A stretch of 64,000 bases of DNA, taken from Sedimentisphaerales bacterium (GTDB lineage: Bacteria > Planctomycetota > Phycisphaerae > Sedimentisphaerales > UBA12454). Where the stretch lies: the NCBI GenBank assembly GCA_050014075.1, contig JBEKEA010000001.1, positions 53,764 through 117,763 on the forward strand. The letters run 5' to 3'. Shown piece by piece: positions 5,757-55,104 of this stretch. The notes beneath the pieces were generated by a model. It saw nothing but the letters and a program-made list of their open reading frames with translations. It was not told the origin of the DNA and searched no databases. Each line of letters opens with the position of its first letter. Positions within the stretch are counted from its first letter, which is position 1. The translations under genes were made by a program, and so were the position numbers.

Positions 5757-7772
5757 TTATACTTTTCTTAGATTTGCGACGACTTTGGCAAAGAGGGCAT
5801 TCATAATTTGCTGCTGCCAGGCGTCAACGACGCTGTGCTGCAAAGTGCCGTCTTCATCCCTAAAACGCAGTGAAACAGTAACACTTTTCTCTCCTGCCGG
5901 TATGGGTTTACCCCTGTAAATGCCGACGAATTTTATTTCTTCAAGTTCCTGAGGTGCTTTAGATTGAATTATCTCTTCTATTTGCCGCCATTGAATCGGC
6001 TCGGCGACTATCAGCGAAAGATCCCTGATTATCGCCGGGAATTTCGGCAAAGGTTTCATCCTCATTTGTGTAACTTCCAGTTCCGCAAGCACATCGAAAT
6101 TAATCTCAGCCGCGCAAACCATCGATGCCTTGATGCCCAGCTCGGATATTATCTGGTCTTTTATCACGCCTGCAGAGCCGATTTTTTGTCCGTTTAAAAT
6201 TATATCGGCGCCGGTTTTCGCCCAGAATACATCGGCAGGATTAAAAGAAACCTTCGCTCCTCCGTCAATCGCCTTAATCGCCCCTTCAATCGCTCCTCGC
6301 AAAATTCGAAAATCGCCGTCGCACAACTCCGCAAGACTGCTATTTTCCGTATGTTTGCCGTCTTCTGTTTTCTTGAATACGTTTGCTATTTCGTAAATTT
6401 TTATATTCTTACTGCCGGCGTTGTAATTTCGTTTGAGAACCTCAAGCAGCGAACCGATTAAAGTGCTCCTGAGCAGATTCGCCGTCCTGCTGCTTGCGTC
6501 CTGCACAACAAGATGGCCGTCTGCTGTTTTGCCGGTTATTAACTTCGCGACAGAATCCTCGTTAAAGCCCGGCGTTATCGTTTCATAAAATCCGCAACTA
6601 TTCAAAAAATCGCTTACCGCGGCGATTCTTCCTTGTCTTTTGTCAACCGCAACGACTTCAATATTTATTTTCTGGCGTATCCCGACTTTGTCATAGCCGT
6701 AAATTCTCGCAACTTCTTCAATCAAATCGACTTCTCTGGTAATATCCGGCCGCCAAGTCGGGATTACGCAAAGAATTTTATCCGTTTCATTTTTTTGCGG
6801 ACTGAAACACAGGCCGCGAAGTATCTCGAAAATCGACTGCTGCGGAACATCTATGCCGAGCAGTTTTTTTACTCTGCTCAGCCTCATAGAAACCATTCGA
6901 TGATTCGCCGTCTTGCCCGGATAAGCGTCAATAACGCCTTCGACGATTTTCCCGCCCGCGACCTGGGCGATAAGCTGTGCCGCCCTCTGCGACTCCCAGT
7001 CAATTTGCTCGATATCAACACCTCTGCCTAATCTGTATGCCGCTTCGCTGGGCAGAACAAGTTTTTGTGAAGTTTTTCTGACACTCACGGGACTAAAAGA
7101 TGCGTTTTCAAGCAGGATACAGGTCGTCGAATTACTTACTTCGGTTTCAATTCCGCCCATAACTCCGCCAATTGCCACCGGTCCGGCGGTATCTGCGATA
7201 ACCAGCATATCAGGCTCAAGTTTGCAATCTGTCCCGTCTATGCTGACTAATTTTTCGCCCTGCTTTGCGAGGCGAACGATAATTTTCGCGCCTTTGATTT
7301 TATTATAATCAAAAGCGTGCGGCGGCTGACCGGTTTCCATCATCGCGTAATTCGTCGCGTCAACGACGTTATTTACGCTGCGAAGTCCGACCGCTTCGAG
7401 CCGTTTAACCATCCACGCAGGACTTGTCCCGATTTTTACTCCCTCAATTATTCTTGCGGTATATCTGCCGCAAAGTGAAGGCTCCGCTATTTCTACGCTA
7501 ATAAGACTGGCTATGTCTTTTTTGACCGGCTCATATTTGACTTTCGGAACTGTTACTTCTCTGCCGGTCGCCGCGGCGATTTCGCGGGCTATACCGATAT
7601 GGCTCAGGCAATCGGGCCGGTTACTTGTAATTTCAAAGTCGATTACAGTATCATCGCCGACCTGCTCGATGCTTTCGGTATTAAACCCTATATTGCTCAA
7701 CAGAGCGCTAAGTTCCTGCGCCGTTTCGGTTATCGGTACATATTCCTTTAGCCAGTTCAGAGATATTTTCAT
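5757..7772 (-). CDS. pheT: Phenylalanyl-tRNA synthetase beta subunit, short form without the B2 OB-fold
   Basis: MKISLNWLKEY start, ITSNRPDCLSHIGIAREI, NNVVDATNY, RPDITREVDLIEEVARIYGY, C-terminal RDLS anticodon-binding domain. Confidence 0.95.
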   Translation of the reverse strand: MKISLNWLKEYVPITETAQELSALLSNIGFNTESIEQVGDDTVIDFEITSNRPDCLSHIGIAREIAAATGREVTVPKVKYEPVKKDIASLISVEIAEPSLCGRYTARIIEGVKIGTSPAWMVKRLEAVGLRSVNNVVDATNYAMMETGQPPHAFDYNKIKGAKIIVRLAKQGEKLVSIDGTDCKLEPDMLVIADTAGPVAIGGVMGGIETEVSNSTTCILLENASFSPVSVRKTSQKLVLPSEAAYRLGRGVDIEQIDWESQRAAQLIAQVAGGKIVEGVIDAYPGKTANHRMVSMRLSRVKKLLGIDVPQQSIFEILRGLCFSPQKNETDKILCVIPTWRPDITREVDLIEEVARIYGYDKVGIRQKINIEVVAVDKRQGRIAAVSDFLNSCGFYETITPGFNEDSVAKLITGKTADGHLVVQDASSRTANLLRSTLIGSLLEVLKRNYNAGSKNIKIYEIANVFKKTEDGKHTENSSLAELCDGDFRILRGAIEGAIKAIDGGAKVSFNPADVFWAKTGADIILNGQKIGSAGVIKDQIISELGIKASMVCAAEINFDVLAELEVTQMRMKPLPKFPAIIRDLSLIVAEPIQWRQIEEIIQSKAPQELEEIKFVGIYRGKPIPAGEKSVTVSLRFRDEDGTLQHSVVDAWQQQIMNALFAKVVANLRKV

Positions 7773-21149: not shown

Positions 21150-22376
21150 TTATTTAATAACCTTTACTACAACGCCTGCGCCAACTGTTCTGCCGCCTTC
21201 ACGAATCGCGAAACGCAATCCATCTTCCATAGCAATAGGAGAAATAATCTCAACTTCCATCGCAATGTTATCGCCAGGCATACACATCTCAGCCGGTTTT
21301 CCTTCACGACTCTTTATGGCTTTTACCGAGCCGGTAACATCCGTGGTTCTAAAATAGAACTGAGGTTTATAGCCCGGGAAGAATGGTGAATGACGTCCGC
21401 CTTCATCTTTTGTCAAAACGTAAACTTCCGCCTCGAAATGAGTGTGAGGAGTAATAGAATTCGGAGCGGCAATAACCTGACCGCGCTCAAGCTCGTCCTT
21501 TTCAACGCCTCTCAAAAGGATACCGACATTATCGCCCGCCTGACCCTGGTCGAGAGTTTTGTTAAACATTTCAACGCCGGTTACAACCGATTTCCTTGTT
21601 TCCTTGTTCAAGCCGATGATAGCGATTTCATCGCCAACCTTCACAATGCCGCGCTCGATACGACCTGTACCGACCGTGCCGCGACCCTTAATGCTGAATA
21701 CGTCTTCAATCGGCATAAGGAAAGGTTTATCAATTTCTCTTACAGGAATTGGAATATATTCGTCCATAGCCTTGATCAGTTCAATTATCGGTGCACAGGC
21801 CGGGTCGTCAAGTTTGGTGGCCTTCATTGCTGTAATTGCTGTGCCGCGAATAATCGGCGTCTTGTCGCCGGGGAAGTCGTACTTGGTGAGCAGGTCGCGG
21901 ATTTCCATTTCCACAAGTTCTATAAGCTCAGGGTCGTCAACAAGGTCAACCTTATTAAGGAAGACCACGATTCTCGGCACATTTACCTGACGAGCGAGCA
22001 GGATGTGCTCTCTTGTCTGCGGCATCGGGCCGTCATAAGCACTGACGACGAGAATAGCGCCGTCCATCTGAGCGGCACCGGTAATCATATTCTTTACATA
22101 GTCGGCATGGCCTGGACAGTCAACGTGAGCATAATGACGAGTCTCGCTTTCGTACTCAACGTGAGCAGTCGAAATCGTAAGAATCTTCGTCGGGTCACGT
22201 CTGCCCTGCGACTCAGATGCCTTGGCAATGTCGTCATAGGATTTAAATTTGCTAAACCCCTTGAGTTCCATTACCTTTGTCATTGCTGCGGTAAGAGTGG
22301 TTTTGCCGTGGTCAACGTGTCCGATTGTGCCGACGTTAACGTGCGGTTTTTTCCTTTCAAATACTACCTTAGCCAT
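21150..22376 (-). CDS. tuf: Elongation factor Tu
   Basis: [39 protein letters not shown]. Confidence 0.99.
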
Positions 22377-22504
22377 TTTGTGTTAACCTCCAACTATGTT
22401 TTATGTTTTTATCTATTTGTCAAATACTTATATAGTTTATGTAAACAAACCGTTATCGGCTTTTAACCATTTTAAGCCTGCTACTTGCAAGCTATAGCAA
22501 ACTC

Positions 22505-22577
<73 letters not shown>

Positions 22578-22995
22578 AGACACGCGCTCAACACTGCCGA
22601 GGAAATAATTTTCTCTCTAATAATATTTAGAGAAAAATCATTTCGCCGTTTCATTCTAATGTATAACAACGCTCTTTTCAGTATTGAAACGCTCGAATTT
22701 AACGTCCCTTGATAAAAAATGCAAAGGGATTCCCTGCAATACTCTCGCCAAAAACGAATACGCAAGTATACGCATGCCCTTGGGAATTGCAATTAAGAAA
22801 CTAAGAAAAATATTTTTTTTAAAAATTTTTTATGGCTATTTTATCATATAATAAAGGTATGTTTTATATATTTACCTTTTTTGTCATATTAACAAAGGTT
22901 TTTTATACTATATATATGGTATGGCACTTCAATTTAAGGTTTAATATATCCATTATGGAAGATTTAAGATTTAAATAATTGTGAAAATTCCAGTA

Positions 22996-23445
22996 TTAAT
23001 TTATTCTACTTGCCATTTTCATAATTTCATCAATTTCACCATTTTTTAAATAAATCATCGCCTGAGAAATCAATTCCTTCTGTTTTAACTTTGAGACTTC
23101 TTTGGCTTTTAGCATTCTAACCAATCTTTCACATACTGTGGGTGAGCCCGTCCATTTAGTATAAATACATTTATGATATAATAATGTATTGCTTAATCCC
23201 TCCATTTTCCATTCTGGAACGGAGGCGCTTTGTATAACATTCAAATCTTTAGCCATTTCAGAAAAATTAGTTTTCTTTACGGTATCGGTCAGTTTAAAAA
23301 ACATTAAAAAATTTTGTTCTCTTATATCGCCACTATTTATATCTATATAAACTTTCGTACAGTAAACTTCATCAAAATTCAAATCCAATATAATCAGGGC
23401 AAGAACGACAATTAAAATTATGATTCCAATTAGATATTTTTTCAT
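22996..23445 (-). CDS. Hypothetical membrane-anchored protein, AT-rich
   Basis: N-terminal hydrophobic helix; 4-bp overlap with the upstream gene. Confidence 0.7.
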   Translation of the reverse strand: MKKYLIGIIILIVVLALIILDLNFDEVYCTKVYIDINSGDIREQNFLMFFKLTDTVKKTNFSEMAKDLNVIQSASVPEWKMEGLSNTLLYHKCIYTKWTGSPTVCERLVRMLKAKEVSKLKQKELISQAMIYLKNGEIDEIMKMASRIN

Positions 23446-24041
23446 TTGCTTTTCTCTACCTGCCTTTTCAAATTGTCATAGACAATATGATCTTTAAGAT
23501 CCAGATACATTAAGACTTGCAGCGTAGCAGCATTCATTAACTCACCTTTGGAATCATCATCTTCTGTTCCATAAAAGTGAGAAAGTTCATGAAAGTTCAG
23601 CACATCTAAATCTTCTTCGCGTAATTCATACCATTTTCGCCCCGAAGTGGTACTATTATACAGCAATTGAGGGGCGTATAAATACCATCTACCGGGTACC
23701 GCCTGGGCCAATGTATCCGGTTTTTTTAAAGCCACCTGGTATAATTCAAGGTTCTCGGCTGTAGAATTAATTCCCTGTTTAATTTTATTTAAAACGAACC
23801 TCAGGTTATTCAGTTCCCTGACCAGGGGTGCATATTTAGGGTGTTTTAACAAGTTTAATTCAACTGTAATCTGACCTAATAATTGATTAGTTCTTTTTCC
23901 AATTCTCTTAAAAGACCTCTCAATCTTTTGCTTTTGTGAATCAGTAAAATCTCCCTGCTTCCAAATCATTTCATACGCAGCCGAGCCGGAAGCTGCTATC
24001 GCCAATATAAAAATTATTGCTGTCAGCTTAACTGGTTTCAT
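23442..24041 (-). CDS. Secreted putative zinc metallopeptidase (M35/aspzincin-like)
   Basis: Signal peptide; HELSH followed by GTEDD. Confidence 0.65.
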   Translation of the reverse strand: MKPVKLTAIIFILAIAASGSAAYEMIWKQGDFTDSQKQKIERSFKRIGKRTNQLLGQITVELNLLKHPKYAPLVRELNNLRFVLNKIKQGINSTAENLELYQVALKKPDTLAQAVPGRWYLYAPQLLYNSTTSGRKWYELREEDLDVLNFHELSHFYGTEDDDSKGELMNAATLQVLMYLDLKDHIVYDNLKRQVEKSK

Positions 24042-24119
24042 TAGCGTTTCTCAAGATTTCATTCGTTTTTTCACGATTGATTTAACTATCATAACCGAAA
24101 GAAAACAAATGGACAATAG

Positions 24120-24600
24120 AAACGAATCCGCCGGGTAAACGGCAGGATTGCCACGGCCTGCAAAGCAGCCTCGCAATGACAACTAACCCTGCCATTGTGA
24201 TGGCAGGGCTAACCAGGAACCCCCCACCGAAACGGAGAACAGGTGAACAGTAGAGAGGGGAAAAACCATAATTTTTTACAAAAAGCGCATGGAAAAACTT
24301 GCGCGCTTGGAAAAAATAAAAAAATTTATATTCATATATAATAAGCACTTACGAATTGTGGACAAAATTTTATAGCTCAAATTTCGACAAAAACGCGCAA
24401 GTTCCGCCTAATGGTAGAGAGGCGTTATAGCCTAATAGCAGATAAGCGTTATAGCTACCAAGACACTAAGGCACAAAGACGTAAAGAGGTAAAGAGGTAA
24501 TGAAATAAAGAAGTAAGGATTAACGTCCAACATTGAACGTCGAACATCCAACTTCCAATGACGATTGGCTTTGGATGTAAATGGGTGGATGTGTGAATAA
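24120..24600. repeat. Composite of REP-like hairpins and 7-8-mer tandem repeats upstream of the HNH gene
   Basis: gattgccacg...cctcgcaatgac, ccctgccattgtgatggcaggg, then blocks of gcgttata, caagaca/aaggcac, taaagagg, aacgtcc/aacattg and ggatgt repeats. Confidence 0.65.
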
Positions 24601-24602
24601 GA

Positions 24603-25181
24603 ATGAATAAAAAACGACTTAATTATGTAATAAGGAAAGTTGGAGGGAGAGATGTTAAACTCGATGCGGATATTCTCTATAATCGGAAAATCATTAACTC
24701 AACGCTGATAGTCTCAAAAGACGGAGGAGTATTTGCGCGAAATCGAAAGACAAGAAAAACGGCCGCGCTGGCGAGAATAATCCTGAAAGCTAAAAAAGGA
24801 CAGATAGTAGACCATATAAACAGAAACCCGCTGGATAACCGCAGAAGCAATCTGCGAATCGTAACGCACCGGCAAAATATGCTTAACCGAATCCTGAAAA
24901 ATTCGACGGGATTTATCGGAGTGCACAAAATATCGCATAGAAAAAAACATAAGAAAAATAAAACGGTTTACTGTGCAGTATATATATCTGAAACAGGGCG
25001 GCATTACTTCAACAGCAGCTTTACGCGTAACGGGCTGATACTGGCGGCAATGGCGAGAGATAAATTCATTATAGAAAACGGAGATGAAGAATACGCACCG
25101 CTGAATTTTCCAATATTCAGGAAAGAGCCGTTCAAAACCTTTCTGCTGAAGAGCGATTTAAGAGCGATGAGAAAGAATTAG
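24603..25181 (+). CDS. HNH endonuclease with C-terminal AP2-like domain
   Basis: VDHINRNPLDNRRSNLR...QNMLN (HNH); STGFIGV...AAMARD...LNFP (AP2-like). Confidence 0.85.
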   Translation: MNKKRLNYVIRKVGGRDVKLDADILYNRKIINSTLIVSKDGGVFARNRKTRKTAALARIILKAKKGQIVDHINRNPLDNRRSNLRIVTHRQNMLNRILKNSTGFIGVHKISHRKKHKKNKTVYCAVYISETGRHYFNSSFTRNGLILAAMARDKFIIENGDEEYAPLNFPIFRKEPFKTFLLKSDLRAMRKN

Positions 25182-27660: not shown

Positions 27661-28446
27661 TTATTCTTCGTAGCCGCTAAAGGGAACCCACATACTTTTC
27701 TCAGTTCCAATTACGGTGCTGTAAGTATGGAGCATTCCAAAATTGGAGCAGCGAATCGAATACCAGTTTATATCCTTATTATGCGCCAGTTCCTCTTTGA
27801 TTTCATCTTCCACAACAACGCTGGACTTTTCCTGGGTATGCATCTTCTCGATAATATAGTCCTGGTCTGCGTCGGTCAGGAAAGAATACACGGGGCTTAT
27901 CGAGTGCCTGTCAACGAGGTCAACGATATCTTCCGGGAATATTTCCGCTTTGGGGTCAATTTCAATGTCCATTATGCTCAATTGGCCGAATAATCCTTTT
28001 TGCTGCTTACCCTTTGAAGAAGGATATGTAGTCAGGCAAGGCACTTCTATTTTAAAGATAACATCGGTCTGGGCCCTGACGGAAGGAGTTCGGACTGAAT
28101 ATCTGCACAGGTATCGGACGAGACATTTTTCATGAGATTTGGGCGTAATTTTTTCTATGAAGAAAGGATAATCGAAATCGATATTGACGCGCGAGGCCGA
28201 AAGCTTCGTCACATAGTCGGCGATATTGCTTCTGAGCGTTTTTGTTCCGATTCTTTCGCGGTGCTGATGCAAAACGCCGATGAATGTATCAATCCATCTG
28301 GCTTCGAATTCGTGCATAATCCTTGCGCTAATGGAAATATTGGCGATGGTCTGCTGGCCGTCAGGATTTGCTTTGGAAAGCACCTTCATCGGGAATGGAA
28401 GGTTTTTCATGCCGACATCGACGAGAAATCTTTTTTCTTCAGTCAT
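27661..28446 (-). CDS. GTP cyclohydrolase IB (FolE2)-fold protein with degenerate active site
   Basis: Family-like scaffold (DVGMKNL.FP, FDYPFFIEKITPKS, SPVYSFL). Canonical CPCS, AHNQ and ESIH appear as YPSS, LFGQ and GMLH. Confidence 0.75.
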   Translation of the reverse strand: MTEEKRFLVDVGMKNLPFPMKVLSKANPDGQQTIANISISARIMHEFEARWIDTFIGVLHQHRERIGTKTLRSNIADYVTKLSASRVNIDFDYPFFIEKITPKSHEKCLVRYLCRYSVRTPSVRAQTDVIFKIEVPCLTTYPSSKGKQQKGLFGQLSIMDIEIDPKAEIFPEDIVDLVDRHSISPVYSFLTDADQDYIIEKMHTQEKSSVVVEDEIKEELAHNKDINWYSIRCSNFGMLHTYSTVIGTEKSMWVPFSGYEE

Positions 28447-29518
28447 TTTTTACTCCTTTATTTTTCAGGGCTTCAATCTGTGAAGCCAAAATCCGCCATT
28501 TATTAATTTTCAAACCAAACACTTCTATATCGCTTGTTTTATCAGCAAAATTCCAAATCTGCTGTTTTTTATCTATTTCATTACCGAGTTTCAATCCGAG
28601 AAATTCAAACTTTTTACATACATCGCCGATAATCGGCTGGAACTGTTCCAGATTTTCGCTGAAAAACACAATCGCGTCAAGCCCGCCGAGCATTGAAATA
28701 AAGCTGCCGATGTATTTAACAACATTATACAGATAAATTTCCCGCGCGAAATCTTTTTTCACATTTCTTTTGCCGCTGATAACGTCAAATAAATCGGTTT
28801 TTTCGCCTGTCAGTGCCATAAAGCCGCTTTGGCTCGAAAGAAGCTGATTAATCTGCTCAAACCGCATTCCCATCGAATGCAGATAAAATATAATTGTCGG
28901 GTCAATATCGCCGCAGCTTGTGCCGGACAGTATTCCCTCTGTCGGAGTAAAGCCCATACTCGAATCAACGGGCAGGCCGTCTTTTACGGCTGTGATGTTC
29001 GTATGCTCATCCAGATGGACGCAAATAATCCTTTGCGAGCTGTTTTTAATCAGCGGCTTTATATGTTTTGATGCCCAGGAGTGAAAAAGACCGAATCTTC
29101 CGGTACGCCTTATGCCTTTGTCACTAAGCTGATACGGCACAGCGTAGCTGCTGACTTCGGCGGGCAAATCGAGGAAAAAGGCGGTATCGCAAAGAAGGAT
29201 ATGCGACAGGTTCGGCAGTATATCAATATAATAGCCGGCTGTTTTGGCGGTTACATCGTTGAATTCGGGCAGGAATCCAACGCATTTTTCCAGCTCTTTT
29301 ATGTTCTGTGCAGACAAAAAAGACGCGGGCTTTTTAATAATTTCGCCGCCATGATGTAAAAAATACCCGATTGATTCAATCTTTTCAAAGTTGTTTGTGC
29401 TTTTCTCAACGGCTTTTTGCCAATCCGACCGTAACGAGCATTTTCCCTCAGTGAGAATTTCTCCCTGGACCTTGCACCAATGTAAATTAACGGTATCGGA
29501 ATCAAAAAGCAGTATCAT
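28439..29518 (-). CDS. Degenerate acetate kinase-fold protein
   Basis: Retains HGG, DTAF and SMGFTPTEG...GDIDP; lacks GHR, YGFHG, HLGNG, GTR, GIGEN and the terminal EE. Confidence 0.75.
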   Translation of the reverse strand: MILLFDSDTVNLHWCKVQGEILTEGKCSLRSDWQKAVEKSTNNFEKIESIGYFLHHGGEIIKKPASFLSAQNIKELEKCVGFLPEFNDVTAKTAGYYIDILPNLSHILLCDTAFFLDLPAEVSSYAVPYQLSDKGIRRTGRFGLFHSWASKHIKPLIKNSSQRIICVHLDEHTNITAVKDGLPVDSSMGFTPTEGILSGTSCGDIDPTIIFYLHSMGMRFEQINQLLSSQSGFMALTGEKTDLFDVISGKRNVKKDFAREIYLYNVVKYIGSFISMLGGLDAIVFFSENLEQFQPIIGDVCKKFEFLGLKLGNEIDKKQQIWNFADKTSDIEVFGLKINKWRILASQIEALKNKGVKND

Positions 29519-30732
29519 CGGGTTTTATCTCCTGCTTTGTTGGACAAATTTAATCCCTCTAAACAAATAACCCTCTCCTCATCGGCGGGAATACAAAGAA
29601 CAGCCGCTGGAGAGTTTTCTTCACTAAGTCTGGCTATCTGCTTACCGTTATAATCGCGGTTTGCGGCGCTGTTCAATGCAATGCCGCACCAATCCATATT
29701 CTCACAAACCTTTTCTCTGACCTGCCAGTTATATACGCCAATATCATCTGTAAAAACAAGAACATCTGCCCCGCCGAGAATCGCGGCGTAACCGCCGATG
29801 TATTTTCTTATTCGATAAATATACATATTAAAGGCGAGGTCGGCCTGGTCTTTGTCCTCGGGCGAAGTGTTTTTCATAATGTCCCTGATATCGCTTGAAA
29901 AACCTGAAATTCCCAGTAGGCCGCTTTTTTTTGTCAAAAGGTCGAGTAAGTCATCCGGTCGATATCCATATACACTCATCAGATATACCGTAAGCATAGG
30001 GTCAATATCTCCGCAACGAGTGCTCATAACAAGACCTGTAAGAGGAGAATAACCCATTGAAGTATCAACCGAATGGCCGTCTTTGATGGCCGCAATGCTC
30101 GAGCCGCCAGTGCCGAGATGACAAGCGATGATTTTTAGTTTTTCCGGAGAGGTTTTAAAAAAGCGTCCCGTTTCGAGAAGAACATTCAAATAAGACAAGC
30201 CGTGAAAGCCGTATTTACGATAATTGAGTTTTTCCGTTACGACGGGGGGCAATGCATAAGTGTAAGCGACGGCAGGCAGAGAGGAATGAAAGGCCGAATC
30301 AAAAGTTACATATTGTTTTACATCCGGCAGCGTTCGCTGGCATTCATGAATAACACTAAGCGAAACGGGATTATGAATAGGCGCAAGCGGCAGGCACAAT
30401 TGCAGTTTTCTTAAAGTTTCATCATTAATAAAATCTGAATTTACGAAATAGTTCCCGCCGTGCACAAACCGATGACCAATAAGATCGATACCGATTTTGT
30501 CTTTTAAACTTTTTAATATAAAAGCAGCGGCGTCTTTATGAGTTTTAAGGGGAATAATATCCTTCACGGAGTTTGAGCCGATTTTGTGCTCGATAAAAGA
30601 AGGTTCTGTGCCGGTTACTCCTACGCGATGGGCTTTTCCTGATGCAATCGCTTCGATAGCCCCGGAAACAGATGCCTTATAAACTTTATAAGTGAGCGAC
30701 GAACTGCCGCAGTTAAAAACTAAAATGTTCAA
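29515..30732 (-). CDS. Acetate/propionate kinase family protein, atypical nucleotide-site motifs
   Basis: NCGSSS, GHRFVHGG, FDSAFH, YGFHG, HLGTGGSS, TRCGDIDP, FTDDIG, DEE; TTG start. Confidence 0.9.
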   Translation of the reverse strand: MNILVFNCGSSSLTYKVYKASVSGAIEAIASGKAHRVGVTGTEPSFIEHKIGSNSVKDIIPLKTHKDAAAFILKSLKDKIGIDLIGHRFVHGGNYFVNSDFINDETLRKLQLCLPLAPIHNPVSLSVIHECQRTLPDVKQYVTFDSAFHSSLPAVAYTYALPPVVTEKLNYRKYGFHGLSYLNVLLETGRFFKTSPEKLKIIACHLGTGGSSIAAIKDGHSVDTSMGYSPLTGLVMSTRCGDIDPMLTVYLMSVYGYRPDDLLDLLTKKSGLLGISGFSSDIRDIMKNTSPEDKDQADLAFNMYIYRIRKYIGGYAAILGGADVLVFTDDIGVYNWQVREKVCENMDWCGIALNSAANRDYNGKQIARLSEENSPAAVLCIPADEERVICLEGLNLSNKAGDKTR

Positions 30733-30869: not shown

Positions 30870-32357
30870 TTAGGCGGCGCGGAGACGGAATAATTGCATT
30901 AATCTATCGCTGATAGGAGTTTTTCCTGCCGGCAGGTCGCGGGTGAGCCACTTACCATTTCGCATCGTCAAAACCGCCCAAATGCTTATCCACCACAATC
31001 CCGACAGCCAGAACAGGCCATAGGCGTAAGACCAAATCGCTTCTGAACTTCGGCGTCGCAGCAAATAGAAAACGGCAGGCGCCGTTGATGCGATTACCGC
31101 TCCAAACAAAACCTGCGACAAATATACGCTGGGCTGCACAAGCATCCAGCCGGCAACAGCGAAAACAAGTATTCGCGACACGACGGGATTAATAAAAGAT
31201 ACTATGAAGTTGACTCTTGCCCCGCTTGTGTCTTTGCGGAATTTTTTAAACATAAATTTAACCATTACCCATGTTTCACGCACATTGCTCCTGGACCAGC
31301 GGAGCAGCATCTTGCACAACTGGCCGTATTCTGTCGGCACCATAGTATAAACTACGGCGTTAGACTGAAATCTAACATCGTAACCGTTTTTCAGGACGAT
31401 ATTGGTTATTGCCCTGTCTTCGCCGATGGTGGCGGGCTGACCGAGAAATGTCTGATGAACCCAGTCTTTGAGATCTTTTATTACAACGCTTTTTCGATAA
31501 GCGCTTAGAGCTCCGGGGGTGCAGAAAACGGTATTGACCATACTTTGGCTTGCGCGAATGAAATCAAAACTATATGCGAAAGAAACCTCTAGCATCTTCG
31601 GAATAATTCCATCTCTGCGGTTGAGAACGCGAACGCTGCCGGCCACTGCGCCTATTTTGGAATCGGATACAAACGGACTGACAAGCCTCCGAATAGTCTG
31701 TCGTTCAATTATCGAATCGCTGTCTATTGTTACAACAATATCTCCCCTGCCGCGAATTATGCCTTCGTATAACGCTGCGCGTTTGCCGCGATTCTTTTTA
31801 AAGTTTATCATTTCAATCCTGCCGGCGGATTCTGCGCAGGCTTTTTGAATCCATGAAAGAGTGTCGTCTGCGCTGCCATCATTGATAGCAATGATTTGAA
31901 GTTTATTGATTGGATAATCGCTTTTTAAAACGCTTCGCAGCGTTTTGAGCATATGTTTGCCTTCGTTGTAAGCAGGCACAATCACTGTGCATCGCGGCAA
32001 CTGTTCATCGGTGCAGCTTCGCACGGGTCTGTAACCCAATACAAGCAGAACTCGCCAGAGGAACACTATAACATTTGATAACAGGAGCGCACGGAAAGAA
32101 TAAAAAAACATCCAGCCTGTCCGGCTCATACGGAGTTCTTCGAGCATGGCCCTGAAATCCGCAAGAGTCAAAAAACCGCTGTATATAATCATCGCCGTTA
32201 TAAGCGCAATACAAATCTTTGCTGAAGAATCCGTTGTCAGCGGAAGACTTATACTGCTGCGATATGCACCGCCAAACCGCGGCGAATAAATTGCGAGCCT
32301 GCTGGTCGGAGTTGTAACTGCACCGTAACCCTGAAAAAACTTCTTAACATCAAACAT
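30870..32357 (-). CDS. Processive GT2 glycosyltransferase (hyaluronan synthase/NodC-like)
   Basis: VPAYNE, NDGS, GKR, DSD, GEDR, LLRW; N- and C-terminal TM segments. Start position uncertain. Confidence 0.88.
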   Translation of the reverse strand: MFDVKKFFQGYGAVTTPTSRLAIYSPRFGGAYRSSISLPLTTDSSAKICIALITAMIIYSGFLTLADFRAMLEELRMSRTGWMFFYSFRALLLSNVIVFLWRVLLVLGYRPVRSCTDEQLPRCTVIVPAYNEGKHMLKTLRSVLKSDYPINKLQIIAINDGSADDTLSWIQKACAESAGRIEMINFKKNRGKRAALYEGIIRGRGDIVVTIDSDSIIERQTIRRLVSPFVSDSKIGAVAGSVRVLNRRDGIIPKMLEVSFAYSFDFIRASQSMVNTVFCTPGALSAYRKSVVIKDLKDWVHQTFLGQPATIGEDRAITNIVLKNGYDVRFQSNAVVYTMVPTEYGQLCKMLLRWSRSNVRETWVMVKFMFKKFRKDTSGARVNFIVSFINPVVSRILVFAVAGWMLVQPSVYLSQVLFGAVIASTAPAVFYLLRRRSSEAIWSYAYGLFWLSGLWWISIWAVLTMRNGKWLTRDLPAGKTPISDRLMQLFRLRAA

Positions 32358-49086: not shown

Positions 49087-51555
49087 TCAGACTGATGCTT
49101 TTCTGTTTTTGGCGCAGAACTGGCCCATAAGTTTCATCGCTTCGGTAAGTTTTTCACTTGAGCCGTCATTATTCGCGAACGCCTCGACGAGTGTTACAAG
49201 TTCCGGGTCCGCAGGCACTATGCCGAGATGATGCGAAACATTTACTATCCCGGCGTCAAGGCCGTAACGCATCGCCACTTCGACATAGGCACGGGTAACG
49301 CCGATTTTCCTGGCCGGCAGGTCGCGGACGCTATTCGTAACACCAAGCGAGAAATGACACTTCTTTAGCAGGGGGTCGGTCTTTATGCGTTTTATGGTAT
49401 TAAACGTTCTGTAAGTATAGCTCGGCACGCCGGGCATCATCGGCATATCTATCGCAAGCGGGAAAACCGTCGAGTCGAAAAATATTTCTTCGGGCGCAAA
49501 ATCATATTTGTTTATCGCTGCATCGTAAATTGTTTTTGCCAGGCTGAAAAGGTCGTCGATACTGTCGGTCCTGCCCGGTTCTGTGACTTTGGCGGTGCCT
49601 CCGCTGATAAGCAGGCCGATAAATTTAAAATCGAAATGCTTTTTGAGCGGCATTATATTTTCGATAGTGTAGGTTTTAATCGAGTTAATCAAAAGCGGCG
49701 CGACTTTTTCACTCGTGTTGAACCATTCCTTCATGCCCGCGATAAGGACATTATCATCACTGCTATCGATACAAATCGGCACGCCTCTGCCAAACTTTCG
49801 CACGAGTCTGACATATTCTATTATGAGTTTGACTGCCAGTGCCGGGCCGGATTCGCCGAACTGGTCGATATTGACCGCGATATAGTCTGCGCCGTCGGCA
49901 GCCTGCGACTCAATCAGGGCCTTTATGTAATTCAACTGGGGGCTGATGCGGGTAAAAGCATCATCGCCGAGTTCGAGCAACTGTTTCATTATTTGGCCGG
50001 TTTTAGGAATCGAAGCGTGCACAAGCTCTCCGACTGAGATAAGCGGGCTGCGCTGGGTGTGGTCTCTGCCGAAAAGATAATTCAGAATCGAGGATGTATG
50101 CTCAAGTGCGGAATTTCTGGGTTTGTTGATAATTTTTCGCAATTCCTTTAGCCCTTTTTCCTTGGCAGCGGCAGCCTGGTAAATCCTGTCTCCGATGCAG
50201 ACCCTGTCAAGATTATTTCCGCATTTGCCTTCGGCGGTCGAATCGCCGCAGGGAGCGTTGTCCATTCCTTTTTCACATCCGCCGATTGTGCACAGGCTGA
50301 AATTTTCAGGAAGGAAGCAGTCGCCGCATTCCTCGCAATCAAACAGCGGATATTTAGTTGATTTTTCTAATGTGTTAAAACTTTTATAGACAAAGCCCTT
50401 GTTTTTATCAGCGCCGAGAAATTTCATTGTCTTTTTAAACCAGCCAAAGCCCTTGTGCTTGGGGTCAAGAACGGCAGCGTGCATAACGTCGAAGAAACTA
50501 TGCTTAAATGTCTTCTCAAAAGCGGAAAGTTTCGTTCTTTTGCCTGCATCATCATAAAGATAAAAAGCTTTTTTCGCCGGCCAGCAAAGATTGTCCTTAA
50601 ATTGCTGCCAGTTTTCACCGATTTCGGTGGCGCGTTTTAGAATTTTAATAAACGTTTCATAATCAGGCACTCCGCCGACATCGGCACCTGCGGCGCCGAT
50701 TGATTTATACATCGCAATCTGCTGAGCGGCGCGTTCAATATGGTCGCTGACGCTTTCGGAATAAACTTTTTCAAGAAGCTCATCGCTGACAAAACAGCCC
50801 GGCAGTTTAATATCGTGCATCAGCCGGGGAGCGGGAGTAATTGTGCTTAATAAATATACGTTTCCAATTACAGGTATATCAAGATTTGTCTCTTTCAGAT
50901 AGCGCACAAGTTCAAGACTCTTTTTCCAATCCCAGCCGACCTGCGTAATCAGGAATTTTGCTCCGCAGGCGATTTTCTTCTCCATCTTAAAATACTGCTG
51001 CACCTGGGATTCTTCGTTATATTTAAACGGCGAAACGGCGGCTCCGGGGAAAAACTGTTTGACGGCAGCAAGCTCCTGGGCCTTTGCCGACATATAGGCC
51101 TCGTTGTTCAGGCGGTTTACCATCGCAAGCAGATTCACCGATTCAAGCTCAAAAACTCCTTTTGCGGAAACCGGCTTATCGCCCGTAAGAGCAAGAAAAC
51201 TTTCAACGCCTGCCGATTTATGTGCCGCCAGAAGACTGATGATTGCGTCTCTGTTCATATCCTTGCAGCTAACGTGAGGGATAAAATCAAGTCCGCCGAG
51301 TAGATTTTTGCTTACGACGTAACGGTGGGCTTCTGCCGGCTCGATATTCGCCACGCCGCCGGGGCTTTGCGGGCTTGTGATACCGACAAAGTTAAATCCA
51401 GCCGGTATATCTTTGCCGCCGCTACTGTTAAAAGCCGTAAGAAATTTCTGAATCGGTGCAAAGCTGAAGTTTGGCCCGCCGGTCAGTTCGGCCACGATAA
51501 CGAAACTATCTCTTTTTTGCAGTGCCTGACTAAGTCTTTTGCCTGTCATATCCAT
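49087..51555 (-). CDS. Methylenetetrahydrofolate reductase (MetF) fused to a MetV-like Cys-rich domain and a pterin-binding methyltransferase domain
   Basis: HVSCKDMNR, LALTGD, KIACGAKFLITQ; CEECGDC...C...CEKGMDNAPCG...C; IDSS, INS, FFD..VFPL, LGVTN. Confidence 0.82.
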   Translation of the reverse strand: MDMTGKRLSQALQKRDSFVIVAELTGGPNFSFAPIQKFLTAFNSSGGKDIPAGFNFVGITSPQSPGGVANIEPAEAHRYVVSKNLLGGLDFIPHVSCKDMNRDAIISLLAAHKSAGVESFLALTGDKPVSAKGVFELESVNLLAMVNRLNNEAYMSAKAQELAAVKQFFPGAAVSPFKYNEESQVQQYFKMEKKIACGAKFLITQVGWDWKKSLELVRYLKETNLDIPVIGNVYLLSTITPAPRLMHDIKLPGCFVSDELLEKVYSESVSDHIERAAQQIAMYKSIGAAGADVGGVPDYETFIKILKRATEIGENWQQFKDNLCWPAKKAFYLYDDAGKRTKLSAFEKTFKHSFFDVMHAAVLDPKHKGFGWFKKTMKFLGADKNKGFVYKSFNTLEKSTKYPLFDCEECGDCFLPENFSLCTIGGCEKGMDNAPCGDSTAEGKCGNNLDRVCIGDRIYQAAAAKEKGLKELRKIINKPRNSALEHTSSILNYLFGRDHTQRSPLISVGELVHASIPKTGQIMKQLLELGDDAFTRISPQLNYIKALIESQAADGADYIAVNIDQFGESGPALAVKLIIEYVRLVRKFGRGVPICIDSSDDNVLIAGMKEWFNTSEKVAPLLINSIKTYTIENIMPLKKHFDFKFIGLLISGGTAKVTEPGRTDSIDDLFSLAKTIYDAAINKYDFAPEEIFFDSTVFPLAIDMPMMPGVPSYTYRTFNTIKRIKTDPLLKKCHFSLGVTNSVRDLPARKIGVTRAYVEVAMRYGLDAGIVNVSHHLGIVPADPELVTLVEAFANNDGSSEKLTEAMKLMGQFCAKNRKASV

Positions 51556-51659: not shown

Positions 51660-52090
51660 ACAAGGCTTTTTTAACACAATCCTGCTGATATAAAAACTGC
51701 TATTAAAGAAAAATTTAGTCTTTTATCCTGTGGATAAAGTGTTGATAACACAACCGTATTGTTAAAATAAACACTTTGCACAATTAAGAGAAGATAATGC
51801 AAATATCTGTCATTCCCGACCGAACAAAAAAACTATTATTAAACCCACAATTAAAAGCTCATAAGTGCTTGTGTTATAATAAGTTAAAATAACAAAAATA
51901 GGGACAATAAACGATAATACGTCTATAGTAAATTTTTAATAATAAATTTGGTTCAAATTCTATGCCAAAAAACAAAAATCTATTATTTTGGTAATTAAGT
52001 GGAAAACTGTTTATTTTGAATTCAGTTATAGCCCGTTTTAAATAAAGAACTTATATTCGGACCTAAAATAATAAAATTATTTTTTCACAT
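51660..52090. promoter_or_regulatory. AT-rich intergenic region with DnaA boxes
   Basis: Perfect TGTGGATAA at 51729-51737; one-mismatch boxes near 51670, 51740, 51774 and 51999. Confidence 0.4.
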
Positions 52091-53129
52091 ATTTAAGGAT
52101 TTTTTCTTTCAGTTTTTTGCATATATCGGCGGGATTTTTTGCTTTACAGACACAGGATGAGACAGCGATTCTCGTTGCGCCTGCCTGAAGAACTTTTTCT
52201 ACATTTTCCGGAGTGATGCCGCCGATAGCAATCATTTCGATGTGTTTGTTCTTAAGTCTTTTCAATACTCCAGATACATACTTCAGACCCGAAACTTTCG
52301 CTTGGGGTTTGGTTGGTGTCGCAAAAACTGCTCCTGCCCCGACATAATGAGGCCCCTGTTTAACTGCTTTATCTAGTTCACCAGTCGAATGCGTGCTGAC
52401 ACCAATAATTAGTGGTCTAAGCTGGCATTTTATAACAACTTGGGCAGACAAGTCTTGTTGGCCAAGATGAACGCCATCGGCATCGACAGCGACCGCAATG
52501 TCAATCCTGTCATTGATTATGCTGATGACATCTTTTTGTTTACATAAATCAACAAACCTGCGGCCAAGAGACAACAACTGGTCATCAGGGATATTTTTGG
52601 CTCTTAATTGCAGGCAATCGGCGCCTCCTGCCGCACAACCCTTAGCAATTTTAAGAACATCGATGCCATCTTCTACAGTGATAATGCAGTAAAGCCTTGT
52701 CTTTTTGAATCTTAAGGCAGGATAACCCTGTAAAGAAATATCTTTTTCAAGAATGTAGCAGTCATATCTGAGTTTTTCGAACTCGGCTGATATTTTATTA
52801 TCGACAGCACAAGCCGATTCGGCAAGGGTTCTCAGCGCTTCGGTAGTCCTTGCAAAACCGGCAGTTACGCAATCCTCGAAGTTTTGCCGTTTCATCTGCC
52901 CTGCCACCCGCATCCGGCAGCCGATATCATTTTCGGTATCGCGTGCGGCGATAAGTTTTTGCATACCAAATTTCGTTACGGCGGCAGTCAGCCTGTGACG
53001 AAGAGCCTTGCATCGGCCGGACAACTGTTCATTATCGAGTGCAAATCTGCAGAATTCCTCCGCTATCCGCAACCCTTCGCGCCCGCGGTTAAAATTGGCA
53101 TCTATAATTCTGTAAATCGCATGCTCCAT
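52077..53129 (-). CDS. thiE: Thiamine-phosphate synthase with N-terminal helical extension
   Basis: RIIDANFNRGREGLR N-domain; QLRAK, INDRID, GVHLGQ, STHS, TPTK, AIGGI. Confidence 0.93.
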   Translation of the reverse strand: MEHAIYRIIDANFNRGREGLRIAEEFCRFALDNEQLSGRCKALRHRLTAAVTKFGMQKLIAARDTENDIGCRMRVAGQMKRQNFEDCVTAGFARTTEALRTLAESACAVDNKISAEFEKLRYDCYILEKDISLQGYPALRFKKTRLYCIITVEDGIDVLKIAKGCAAGGADCLQLRAKNIPDDQLLSLGRRFVDLCKQKDVISIINDRIDIAVAVDADGVHLGQQDLSAQVVIKCQLRPLIIGVSTHSTGELDKAVKQGPHYVGAGAVFATPTKPQAKVSGLKYVSGVLKRLKNKHIEMIAIGGITPENVEKVLQAGATRIAVSSCVCKAKNPADICKKLKEKILKYVKK

Positions 53130-53249: not shown

Positions 53250-54440
53250 ATGAAAATTCTGGTTATTAACGCCGGCAGCAGTTCAATCAAGTATCAGTTA
53301 TTTGAAATGCCCGCCGAAAAAGTCATCGCAAGAGGTTTGCTGGAAAAAATCGGCGAAGAAACCTCGAAATTGACCCATAGTTACGATTCGAAAGTCCATA
53401 AAACCAAGGCAAAGGCGGCAGACCATTTGGCCGGCATGAAAATAATTCTCGACACTCTCACTGATCCGCAGATTGGCGTGATAAAAGACATATCCGAGAT
53501 TTCAGCGGTTGGGCACAGAGTCGTTCACGGCGGAGAAGCGTTTACAGACTCTGTCGTCATCAATCAGAAAGTTATAGATTCAATTGAAAAATTCGCCGAC
53601 CTTGCGCCGCTGCATAATCCGCCTAATCTGACCGGTATCAGGGCCGCCCAAAAAGACCTTCCCAATGCGATACAGGTTGCCTGTTTCGACACAGCCTTTC
53701 ATACAACAATTCCCAAAGTGGCTTATATTTATGCGCTGCCTTACGATATTTATGAAAAATTTCGCGTCCGGCGATATGGTTTTCACGGAACCAGTCATAA
53801 ATATGTTGCCCGCAGGTGCGCCGCGATAATGGGCAGAGATAAATATGATATAAATGTAATTACCTGCCATCTGGGCAACGGCTGTTCTATCACCGCGGTA
53901 AAAGCCGGCAAAAGTATCGATACTTCGATGGGACTTACTCCGCTGGAAGGCCTTGTGATGGGAACCCGTAGCGGAGATTTCGACCCAGCGATTTTGTTTT
54001 ACTTGGCTGAAAAAGGCTACAGCGTCGAGCAGCTTAATAATATGTGCAACAAGCAAAGCGGACTGCTCGGCATATCAGGTGTTTCGAACGATATGCGAAA
54101 CTTGCGCGAGCAGGCACAGGCCGGAAACGAAAGAGCGCAACTTGCTTTCGATATTTTCTGCTACAGGATAAAAAAATACATCGGCGCATATACCGCCGCG
54201 CTGGGCAAACTGGATGCAATAGTTTTCACCGGCGGAATCGGCGAAAACGCTCCCGATGTCAGGGCACAGTGCTGCAATGACCTCGAACAGATTGGCGTCA
54301 GCATAGACCCGGCCGCGAACGTGGAAACAAATCGCGTCGAAGGGCTTATAACATCCGCCGACAGCAGGGTAAAAGTTTTTGTTATTCCCACAAATGAAGA
54401 ATTGGCGATAGCACAGGACACATTCGCACTGGCAAAATAA
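53250..54440 (+). CDS. ackA: Acetate kinase, canonical ATP type
   Basis: NAGSSSIKY, GHRVVHGG, FDTAFH, YGFHG, HLGNG, GTRSGD, GGIGEN, TNEE. Confidence 0.97.
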   Translation: MKILVINAGSSSIKYQLFEMPAEKVIARGLLEKIGEETSKLTHSYDSKVHKTKAKAADHLAGMKIILDTLTDPQIGVIKDISEISAVGHRVVHGGEAFTDSVVINQKVIDSIEKFADLAPLHNPPNLTGIRAAQKDLPNAIQVACFDTAFHTTIPKVAYIYALPYDIYEKFRVRRYGFHGTSHKYVARRCAAIMGRDKYDINVITCHLGNGCSITAVKAGKSIDTSMGLTPLEGLVMGTRSGDFDPAILFYLAEKGYSVEQLNNMCNKQSGLLGISGVSNDMRNLREQAQAGNERAQLAFDIFCYRIKKYIGAYTAALGKLDAIVFTGGIGENAPDVRAQCCNDLEQIGVSIDPAANVETNRVEGLITSADSRVKVFVIPTNEELAIAQDTFALAK

Positions 54441-54465: not shown

Positions 54466-55104
54466 ATGAAAAAATCGGCGATTATCATAGCCATTCTGTT
54501 ATTCACCGCAGGCTGCGACAGTCTTTATTACGCCACAATGGAAAAATTAGGCAAAGCCAAACGGGACATTCTTGTTGACCGTGTAAAAAGTGCCCGCGAC
54601 GCGCAGGAGCAGACAAAAGAACAATTCGCCTCGGCATTGGATAAATTTCGAAGCGTCGTAAACGTCCCTGCCGGCAAACTGCAGGAAAAATACGACCTGC
54701 TCAAAGGCGAGCTTGATAAAAGCGAAGCAAAAGCCGCCGCAGTTAAAAAACGCATTGCCGATGTTGAAGATGTCGCCAACGCCCTCTTTGACGAATGGAC
54801 AAAAGAACTCGACCAGTATAAGAACGCCGACTTGAGAGCCGAAAGCAAAAAGAAGCTGGACCAGACCCGCCAGAAATACACGCTGTTAATCAACGCAATG
54901 AAAAAAGCCGACAGCAAAATCGAGCCGGTTTTATCGGCATTTCGCGACCAGGTATTATTCTTAAAGCATAATCTCAACGCACAGGCCGTCGCTTCACTTC
55001 AAAGCGAAGTAACTACAATGGAAGCCGATACAGGCAAATTGATAGAGGAAATGGAAAAATCAATCGCCGAAGCCGATACCTTCATCAAAACTATGCAGGA
55101 ATAA
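54466..55104 (+). CDS. DUF2959-like lipoprotein
   Basis: Lipobox TAGC; YYATMEKLG..KRDILVDRV; FLKHNLNAQA. Confidence 0.85.
   Translation: MKKSAIIIAILLFTAGCDSLYYATMEKLGKAKRDILVDRVKSARDAQEQTKEQFASALDKFRSVVNVPAGKLQEKYDLLKGELDKSEAKAAAVKKRIADVEDVANALFDEWTKELDQYKNADLRAESKKKLDQTRQKYTLLINAMKKADSKIEPVLSAFRDQVLFLKHNLNAQAVASLQSEVTTMEADTGKLIEEMEKSIAEADTFIKTMQE

Follow-up and report, generated by a model that had tools for sequence, protein, structure and literature searches.

An Entamoeba-like acetate kinase encoded with a putatively dead paralogue and a FolE2-like protein in a Sedimentisphaerales bacterium

Acetate kinases are homodimers. The acetate kinase of Entamoeba histolytica (EhACK, structure 4H0O) is described as a user of inorganic phosphate and pyrophosphate (Pi/PPi) instead of ADP/ATP (PMC5517563), and PPi-forming acetate kinase is said to be found only in this organism (PMC5931981). 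Five of its residues, T201, D322, Q323, M324 and E327, occlude ATP (PMC5931981); T201 takes the place of the Asn of the PHOSPHATE2 motif, the other four sit in the ADENOSINE motif (PMC5517563, PMC5931981), and an extra Gly203 lengthens the PHOSPHATE2 loop (PMC5517563). ATP-dependent acetate kinases (ACKs) are marked by Gly-Ile/Val in ADENOSINE (G331-I332) and by Asn211 in PHOSPHATE2 (PMC5517563). Four Anaerolineaceae sequences and some digester metagenome sequences, with Asp at the Q323 position, have been listed as "other possible PPi-dependent ACKs", and their phosphoryl donor was left open in the same source: PPi, ATP or neither (Dang & Ingram-Smith 2017, PMC5517563). Here we describe an operon encoding an EhACK-like kinase (Ack1), a second acetate-kinase paralogue (Ack2) and a protein with the FolE2 fold (FolE2L). 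It lies in a 64,000-nucleotide stretch of a Sedimentisphaerales genome (assembly GCA_050014075.1, contig JBEKEA010000001.1, positions 53,764 to 117,763), called the window below; coordinates are positions within the window unless another locus is named.

All three genes are on the minus strand. The first encodes Ack1 (29515-30732, 405 aa, TTG start), a full-length EhACK-like acetate kinase and the presumed catalytic subunit; it is followed by Ack2 (28439-29518, 359 aa) and FolE2L (27661-28446, 261 aa). The stop of Ack1 and the start of Ack2 overlap by 4 bp (29515-29518), and Ack2 and FolE2L overlap by 8 bp (28439-28446), so that the co-directional, overlapping layout reported in an earlier, sequence-only reading of this DNA is borne out by the open reading frame (ORF) coordinates. 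We put the odds at somewhat better than even (about 0.55) that the trio is one conserved, translationally coupled acetyl-phosphate/acetate module with a patchy spread, probably through horizontal transfer, among bacteria of which hardly anything but metagenome-assembled genomes is known, and that it works as proposed below.

Conservation, gene junctions and selection in the trio

Two independent scans addressed the conservation of the trio. For the FolE2L-centred scan, which took one genome per species, the best 80 of 195 relatives' loci were used and classed by BLASTP against the proteins of the window. The Ack1/Ack2 arrangement was present in 41 of these 80 loci, under 15 phylum labels, and all of the genomes that carry it are metagenome-assembled. 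Ack1 and Ack2 are directly adjacent and co-directional in 38 of them, Ack2 lies at a contig end in two, and in the last one (L027) Ack1 is followed by a single 623-aa ORF joining Ack2 and FolE2L. The Ack2-centred scan covered metagenome contigs (best 80 of 113 relatives). Here, Ack1 was directly upstream in 71 of 80 loci, and in the other nine the contig extends no more than 184 nt upstream; Ack2 was thus never met without Ack1 where the contig left room for it. FolE2L was found in 70 of 80; six of the ten loci lacking it end within 130 nt after Ack2. An alternative gene order, FolE2L-Ack1-Ack2, was seen in four loci (L163, L067, L069 and L070). The trio is thus kept elsewhere, which is the outcome that the sequence-only reading had looked for in a synteny comparison.

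A survey of the gene junctions drew on 20 further trio loci whose genes were called cleanly. At the Ack1/Ack2 junction the distance between the two genes was -23 to +2 nt in all 20 loci, with an identical 4-bp overlap in 14, and at the Ack2/FolE2L junction it was -34 to +16 nt, again in all 20. Scans for promoters and terminators around the operon of the window gave nothing above chance. Ratios of nonsynonymous to synonymous substitution rates (dN/dS), calculated by the Nei-Gojobori method against three close relatives, with dS saturated for the most distant pair, were 0.11-0.16 for Ack1, 0.15-0.19 for Ack2 and 0.04-0.07 for FolE2L. All three genes are therefore under purifying selection, and the neutral evolution of Ack2 and FolE2L that had been named earlier as grounds for abandoning the idea was not seen. 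Given the conserved trio and purifying selection, Ack2 and FolE2L are maintained partners rather than products of decay.

When FolE2L was searched for in an even sample of 300 other genomes of the window's phylum, one match with E <=1e-40 was returned. This match scored 144 bits, compared with 497 for the window's own gene, and is therefore probably an ordinary FolE2; with a single match in 300 genomes, the module appears to be rare and patchy in its phylum. In a tree of FolE2L sequences phylum labels are intermixed, and identity between phyla is 58-68%. Both observations fit horizontal spread, although binning errors could add to the pattern.

The natural Ack2-FolE2L fusion (P0241) was modelled with AlphaFold2, giving a predicted template-modelling score (pTM) of 0.42, and a predicted local distance difference test value (pLDDT) below 50 at the junction (residues 337-377) and in the FolE2L tail (603-623). 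Complex prediction for Ack2 and FolE2L from alignment inputs yielded a score of 0.10 against a mark of 0.32, which counts neither way on binding. A second candidate fusion, P0242 (483 aa), was rejected as evidence. In it, some 305 N-terminal residues of an Ack1 run on in frame into FolE2L at about residue 80 of the latter, so that the rest of Ack1, the whole of Ack2 and the beginning of FolE2L are missing; it results from a deletion or from chimeric assembly.

The three proteins and their genomic settings

Ack1 matches the Pfam acetate kinase family PF00871 over almost its entire length (357.8 bits, profile positions 2-391 of 392, cut-off 22) and also passes the NCBIfam acetate/propionate kinase model TIGR00016 (362.6 bits, cut-off 293.4). 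Its best match among solved structures is 4h0o, with 352.3 bits, followed by 6ioy (296.6) and 2iir (287.2). The host genome (2.36 Mb, 81 contigs) contains exactly three PF00871 matches, namely Ack1, Ack2 and a canonical ATP-type AckA, which is encoded on the plus strand of the window, outside the module (53250-54440, 529.6 bits), where the sequence-only reading had placed it. The pattern of structural matches of this AckA is the opposite of that of Ack1: 2iir comes first with 492.5 bits, and 4h0o, with 223.9 bits, ranks 18 of 19.

Residues were compared in an alignment of 34 Ack1 sequences from trio loci with 12 canonical ones. Ack1 of the window has the motifs HLGTGGSS, an extended PHOSPHATE2 loop, and FTDDIGVY at the ADENOSINE position; the alignment of HLGTGGSS and FTDD is ungapped with 4h0o and needs a gap of one residue with 6ioy. 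The PHOSPHATE2 position corresponding to N211/T201 is Thr in all 34 family members, and the ADENOSINE positions are Asp in 100%, Asp in 97% and Ile in 97%. Ack1 accordingly carries neither mark of the ATP type, with Asp-Asp in place of the Gly-Gly of the 12 canonical sequences and Thr in place of Asn211. Three EhACK marks are shared (T201, the extra G203 and D322) and three are not, since the positions of Q323, M324 and E327 hold Asp, Ile and a variable residue (Tyr in the window). The equivalents of N7, R91, H123, D148, H180 and R241, which we take to be the phosphoryl-transfer and substrate residues in M. thermophila numbering, are kept in 94-100% of the family. At the positions of V93, L122, F179 and P232, presumably those of the acetate pocket, the family has V in 88%, I/L in 93%, F in 100% and P in 85%. 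The four Ack1 sequences displayed all retain the C-terminal D/E-E-E of the PTNEE block. Judged by these residues, Ack1 is an intact acetate kinase. We place it in an EhACK-like clade because of the shared marks, three of the six, together with an Asp at the Q323 position as in the Anaerolineaceae look-alikes. The first kinase had already been called atypical in the sequence-only reading, and it can now be described specifically as Entamoeba-like. The Ack1 family is large, with at least 120 protein clusters among the matches listed, at 57-92% identity and under several phylum labels.

Ack2 gives a much weaker match to PF00871 (183.9 bits), confined to profile positions 75-360, and at 178.1 bits falls below the 293.4 cut-off of TIGR00016; its N-terminal domain is shorter by about 40 residues. 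In an alignment of 34 family members the position of N7 is Asp in 61%, the PHOSPHATE1 Ser triplet (S10-12) is replaced by Pro/Pro/Phe-Tyr, R91 by Leu or Val, H180 by Tyr in 47% and R241 by Gly in 52%, and the ADENOSINE motif is unrecognisable, its positions being variable. Ack2 thus lacks the catalytic residues and the PHOSPHATE1, PHOSPHATE2 and ADENOSINE motifs of an acetate-kinase enzyme, while the family has its own set of invariant residues. In a quick tree of 45 rows (a subsample of the 34 Ack1, 34 Ack2 and 12 canonical sequences), Ack2 forms a separate clade (100 in the Shimodaira-Hasegawa-like approximate likelihood-ratio test, SH-aLRT), with a mean within-clade distance of 2.64 versus 1.14 for Ack1. 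As far as can be read from the alignment, Ack2 is a catalytically dead paralogue, with motif loss throughout the family. Locus L150 has a further Ack2-like fragment downstream of FolE2L, at positions 6685-7377 of that locus, with 32% identity over 190 aa.

FolE2L scores 87.8 bits with PF02649 (Pfam GCHY-1/FolE2), of which it is the only member in the genome, but fails both the FolE2 equivalog NF010200 (69.3 bits, cut-off 215) and the MptA model NF010204 (24.4 bits, cut-off 468). An AlphaFold2 model built from a 20-sequence alignment has a mean pLDDT of 71.6 and a predicted bimodular T-fold; its top Foldseek match is the GTP cyclohydrolase IB structure 3d2o (E 1.3e-13, template-modelling (TM) score 0.68/0.72). 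Profile matches to solved FolE2 structures range from 82.6 to 110.7 bits, and a search of the ESM Atlas returned only FolE2-named clusters. Four sequence blocks of FolE2, which presumably contain the Cys/His/Glu metal ligands along with further catalytic residues, are replaced in profile alignments with 3d2o, 2r5r and 8g6c: SLCPCSK by TTYPxS, GAHNQRSH by GLFGQLS, PDEKY by EDQxF and ENFESIHNHS by NxGMLHxYS. FolE2L therefore does not carry the FolE2 motif blocks. The loss of family catalytic motifs from two of the three genes, a central claim of the sequence-only reading, is confirmed by alignment for both Ack2 and FolE2L. The replacement blocks are themselves invariant within FolE2L (TTYP, LFGQLS, DQ and NxGMLHxYST), and new invariant residues appear: C108, C114, H60 and H62. 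An extra, invariant C-terminal tail of ~17 residues (T244, E249, K250, W253, P255) is modelled at pLDDT <50.

FolE2L also occurs outside the trio. In 12 of the 80 FolE2L-centred loci a canonical-type AckA lies directly upstream, and these 12 form one starred clade within Planctomycetota (100/89) in the FolE2L tree. In one of them, L076, the gene order is DUF5107/TPR, Pta (353.7 bits), AckA, FolE2L, DUF4954/DUF6819. The AckA adjoining FolE2L is the only full-length PF00871 match in all five such genomes checked, one of which has an additional 193-aa PF00871 fragment with an internal stop. As to the last gene of this order, it encodes a 674-aa DUF4954 + DUF6819 protein (8855-10879 of L076), and ORFs of the same BLAST cluster follow FolE2L in nine of the 12 canonical-AckA Planctomycetota loci. 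FolE2L as a replacement for Pta was considered and rejected, as the genome has Pta, and the L076 operon has Pta beside both AckA and FolE2L.

The remaining 27 FolE2L loci have no Ack neighbour, and 19 of them extend for at least 2.5 kb on both sides. In 23 of 26 genomes with such a lone FolE2L (4/5 + 19/21) a canonical-type Ack is encoded elsewhere; no Ack1/Ack2 pair was found in the 26 genomes checked. Candidates for an Ack1 without Ack2 were discarded on BLASTP comparison: four second Ack genes (371-427 bits), and a partial Ack gene in L090, were all nearer canonical AckA. No third partner recurs beside the lone FolE2L. Its neighbours are a mixed set: CBS and GNAT proteins (three each), receiver-only response regulators and short-chain dehydrogenases/reductases (SDRs; two each), CorA, a rhodanese and others. 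Both response regulators are encoded immediately upstream of FolE2L (L044, 7520-7942; L045, 7361-7720), and ORFs of their BLAST cluster are found near the trio in L053, L056 and L079. Receiver domains are known to take phosphoryl groups from acetyl phosphate.

Comparison across the three contexts (trio, beside canonical AckA, and alone) shows identity of at least 90% at 80 of the 261 FolE2L positions and context-specific residues at only four. Genetic linkage joins FolE2L to both types of acetate kinase, and its near-identity across contexts makes it a companion of acetate kinases in general. The scaffold of an Ack1/Ack2 pair, one of the two roles (with that of ligand sensor) that the sequence-only reading had offered for FolE2L, does not fit well with this result, because a sequence that stays the same in all contexts argues against a role depending on the dead kinase.

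In the host genome, Pta is encoded on another contig (C4, 405.1 bits), and no pta lies beside the canonical ackA. The latter is flanked by a gene for a fusion of ThiD2 and TMP-TENI (thiamine phosphate synthase; 52077-53129, minus strand) and by one for a DUF2959 protein (54466-55104, plus strand). Upstream of Ack1 by 137 bp, and on the same strand, is a gene for a NodC/PgaC-like family 2 glycosyltransferase (30870-32357), which by BLASTP occupies this place upstream of the trio in L004 and L005, the closest relatives, and in no other locus. Elsewhere in the window, a low-GC stretch (0.365 at 22001-24000, with surroundings of ~0.45) adjoins an HNH_3 endonuclease-like ORF (24603-25181); the region 22001-25181 may be a mobile insert. 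An 822-aa ORF at 49087-51555 (minus strand) unites methylenetetrahydrofolate reductase (MTHFR, PF02219), DUF5981 (MTHFR C-terminal) and Pterin_bind (PF00809) domains.

A proposed module and its rivals

As a mechanism, we propose that Ack1 would pass the phosphoryl group of acetyl phosphate to an acceptor other than an adenylate, the most likely reaction being acetyl phosphate + Pi -> acetate + PPi. The PPi formed would feed the PPi-using enzymes of the genome, in which we found a membrane H+-pyrophosphatase (H+-PPase, 802.2 bits) and two PPDK_N matches, in ORFs of 886 and 917 aa. Ack2 would pair with Ack1, replacing one of the two identical subunits of an ordinary acetate kinase, and FolE2L would bind a ligand in its remodelled pocket and act as a non-hydrolytic accessory or regulator of the acetate-kinase step.

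Several points weigh against this scheme. The complex is a putative one, and the complex prediction counts neither for nor against binding. Four of the Ack2-centred loci (L107, L153, L168 and L172) have no FolE2L downstream of Ack2 despite 661-3982 nt of room, and in the first three of these the contig ends ~600 nt or less upstream of Ack2, where the order FolE2L-Ack1-Ack2 is possible. The lone natural fusion could be explained by one indel in overlapping genes. Ack1 departs from EhACK at three of the five ATP-occluding residues (Q323, M324 and E327), and PPi-using enzymes are common, so that their presence is consistent with the scheme without lending it specific support. FolE2L is equally conserved where Ack2 is absent, in the 12 canonical-AckA loci and the 27 without an Ack neighbour, so that Ack2 cannot be required for its core function. 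Finally, the many invariant polar residues at the former FolE2 active site would also fit a new enzyme.

These last two points lead to the main rival, which we regard as a serious contender, if a clearly less probable one: FolE2L would have been neo-functionalised into an enzyme or a binder of small molecules and would have a metabolite in common with acetate kinases (for example acetyl phosphate, acetate or the phosphoryl acceptor), Ack1/Ack2 being only one of several kinase partners of that step. The constancy of FolE2L across contexts, with four context-specific positions against 80 conserved ones, speaks for it, as do the invariance of the replaced blocks and of the new C108, C114, H60 and H62. 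The company of FolE2L outside the trio points the same way: it stands beside a canonical AckA that is the sole full-length Ack in the five genomes checked, and genomes with a lone FolE2L mostly (23/26) carry a canonical-type Ack elsewhere. On the other side, no substrate can be named for such an enzyme, and no other enzyme gene recurs beside FolE2L; the tight coupling to Ack2 and the one natural Ack2-FolE2L fusion suggest stoichiometric co-production, and so favour a subunit.

A bolder version of an enzymatic FolE2L, which we consider a long shot, is that it is a new T-fold enzyme making or consuming acetyl phosphate and forming, with Ack1/Ack2, a new energy-conserving branch from an acetyl donor to acetate + PPi. 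In one possible route, phosphate would resolve an acyl-enzyme formed on the invariant Cys108/Cys114. If true, this would point to the acetyl phosphate source of EhACK-type kinases; we know of no identified source of acetyl phosphate in Entamoeba.

It is equally unlikely, in our view, that Ack1 depends on neither PPi nor ATP and does not act on acetate, with the trio phosphorylating or dephosphorylating another acyl or other substrate with another donor. Against this stand the presumed acetate-pocket positions and all of the phosphoryl-transfer residues, which are kept in Ack1, and the score of Ack1 with the acetate/propionate kinase model TIGR00016, which is above the cut-off. In its favour, Asp and Ile replace Q323 and M324 of EhACK and the E327 position is variable, and canonical AckA and Pta are already present in the genome; the possibility was also raised for the Anaerolineaceae sequences (PMC5517563).

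That FolE2L is still a GTP cyclohydrolase I, with different catalytic residues, is very improbable. The FolE2 fold, a passing Pfam gathering score and database records named GTP cyclohydrolase speak for this view, and against it are the replaced FolE2 blocks, the 69.3 bits obtained where the equivalog cut-off is 215, and a linkage to acetate kinases instead of folate or queuosine genes. The genome also has a canonical FolE elsewhere (262.2 bits), and FolE2L is therefore not needed as a cyclohydrolase. Decay of Ack2 and FolE2L into functionless duplicates or relics, with an operon-like appearance due to chance or recent duplication, can draw on the family catalytic motifs missing from both proteins, but is already contradicted, to the point of being hardly credible, by their dN/dS values (0.15-0.19 and 0.04-0.07), by intact frames in most of the 160 loci listed, by a gene order kept under 15 phylum labels and by the Ack2 family's own invariant residues.

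Comparison with described systems

Literature searches, at the level of titles and abstracts, turned up no account of an acetate kinase that has both a dead paralogue and a FolE2-like protein as companions, and no report of a FolE2-like protein linked to acetate kinases; the sequence-only reading, too, had known of no system with this composition. What is new is thus an acetate-kinase system with two undescribed, conserved family members that appear to be non-catalytic. Bacterial EhACK look-alikes make up a large family and not a few sequences, and in the loci of both scans they were never alone. Characterisation of bacterial EhACK-like kinases without their partners may therefore mislead. The module offers a testable entry both to the choice of phosphoryl donor in the acetate kinase family and to acetyl phosphate and PPi management in bacteria known almost only from metagenomes.

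The Anaerolineaceae and digester look-alikes have in common with the Ack1 family an extended PHOSPHATE2 motif, a conserved Asp beside the Q323 position and Asp at Q323 itself; the accessible part of the source mentions no neighbouring genes (PMC5517563). With the Pta-AckA pathway the trio shares acetyl phosphate chemistry, and FolE2L stands beside a canonical-type AckA in 12 of 80 loci. The trio differs from this pathway in having no Pta gene, in its EhACK-like kinase and in the addition of two apparently non-catalytic family members. GTP cyclohydrolase IB (3D2O, 5K95 and 8G6C; DUF198 2R5R) has the bimodular T-fold in common with FolE2L (Foldseek TM 0.63-0.72), which is set apart by its replaced motif blocks, its extra C-terminal tail, its failure with the equivalog and its linkage to acetate kinases.

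EhACK itself, which we take to be EC 2.7.2.12, is the best solved match of Ack1 (352.3 bits) and resembles it in the Thr at N211/T201, the PHOSPHATE2 loop longer by one residue (GTGGSS), the Asp at D322 and the phosphoryl-transfer residues. It differs in Gln323-Met324 and Glu327, where Ack1 has Asp-Ile and a Tyr that varies within the family. EhACK has been described as a lone enzyme, with a crystal entry that consists of two chains of one sequence, whereas Ack1, in the loci of the FolE2L- and Ack2-centred scans, comes with a putatively dead paralogue and nearly always with FolE2L.

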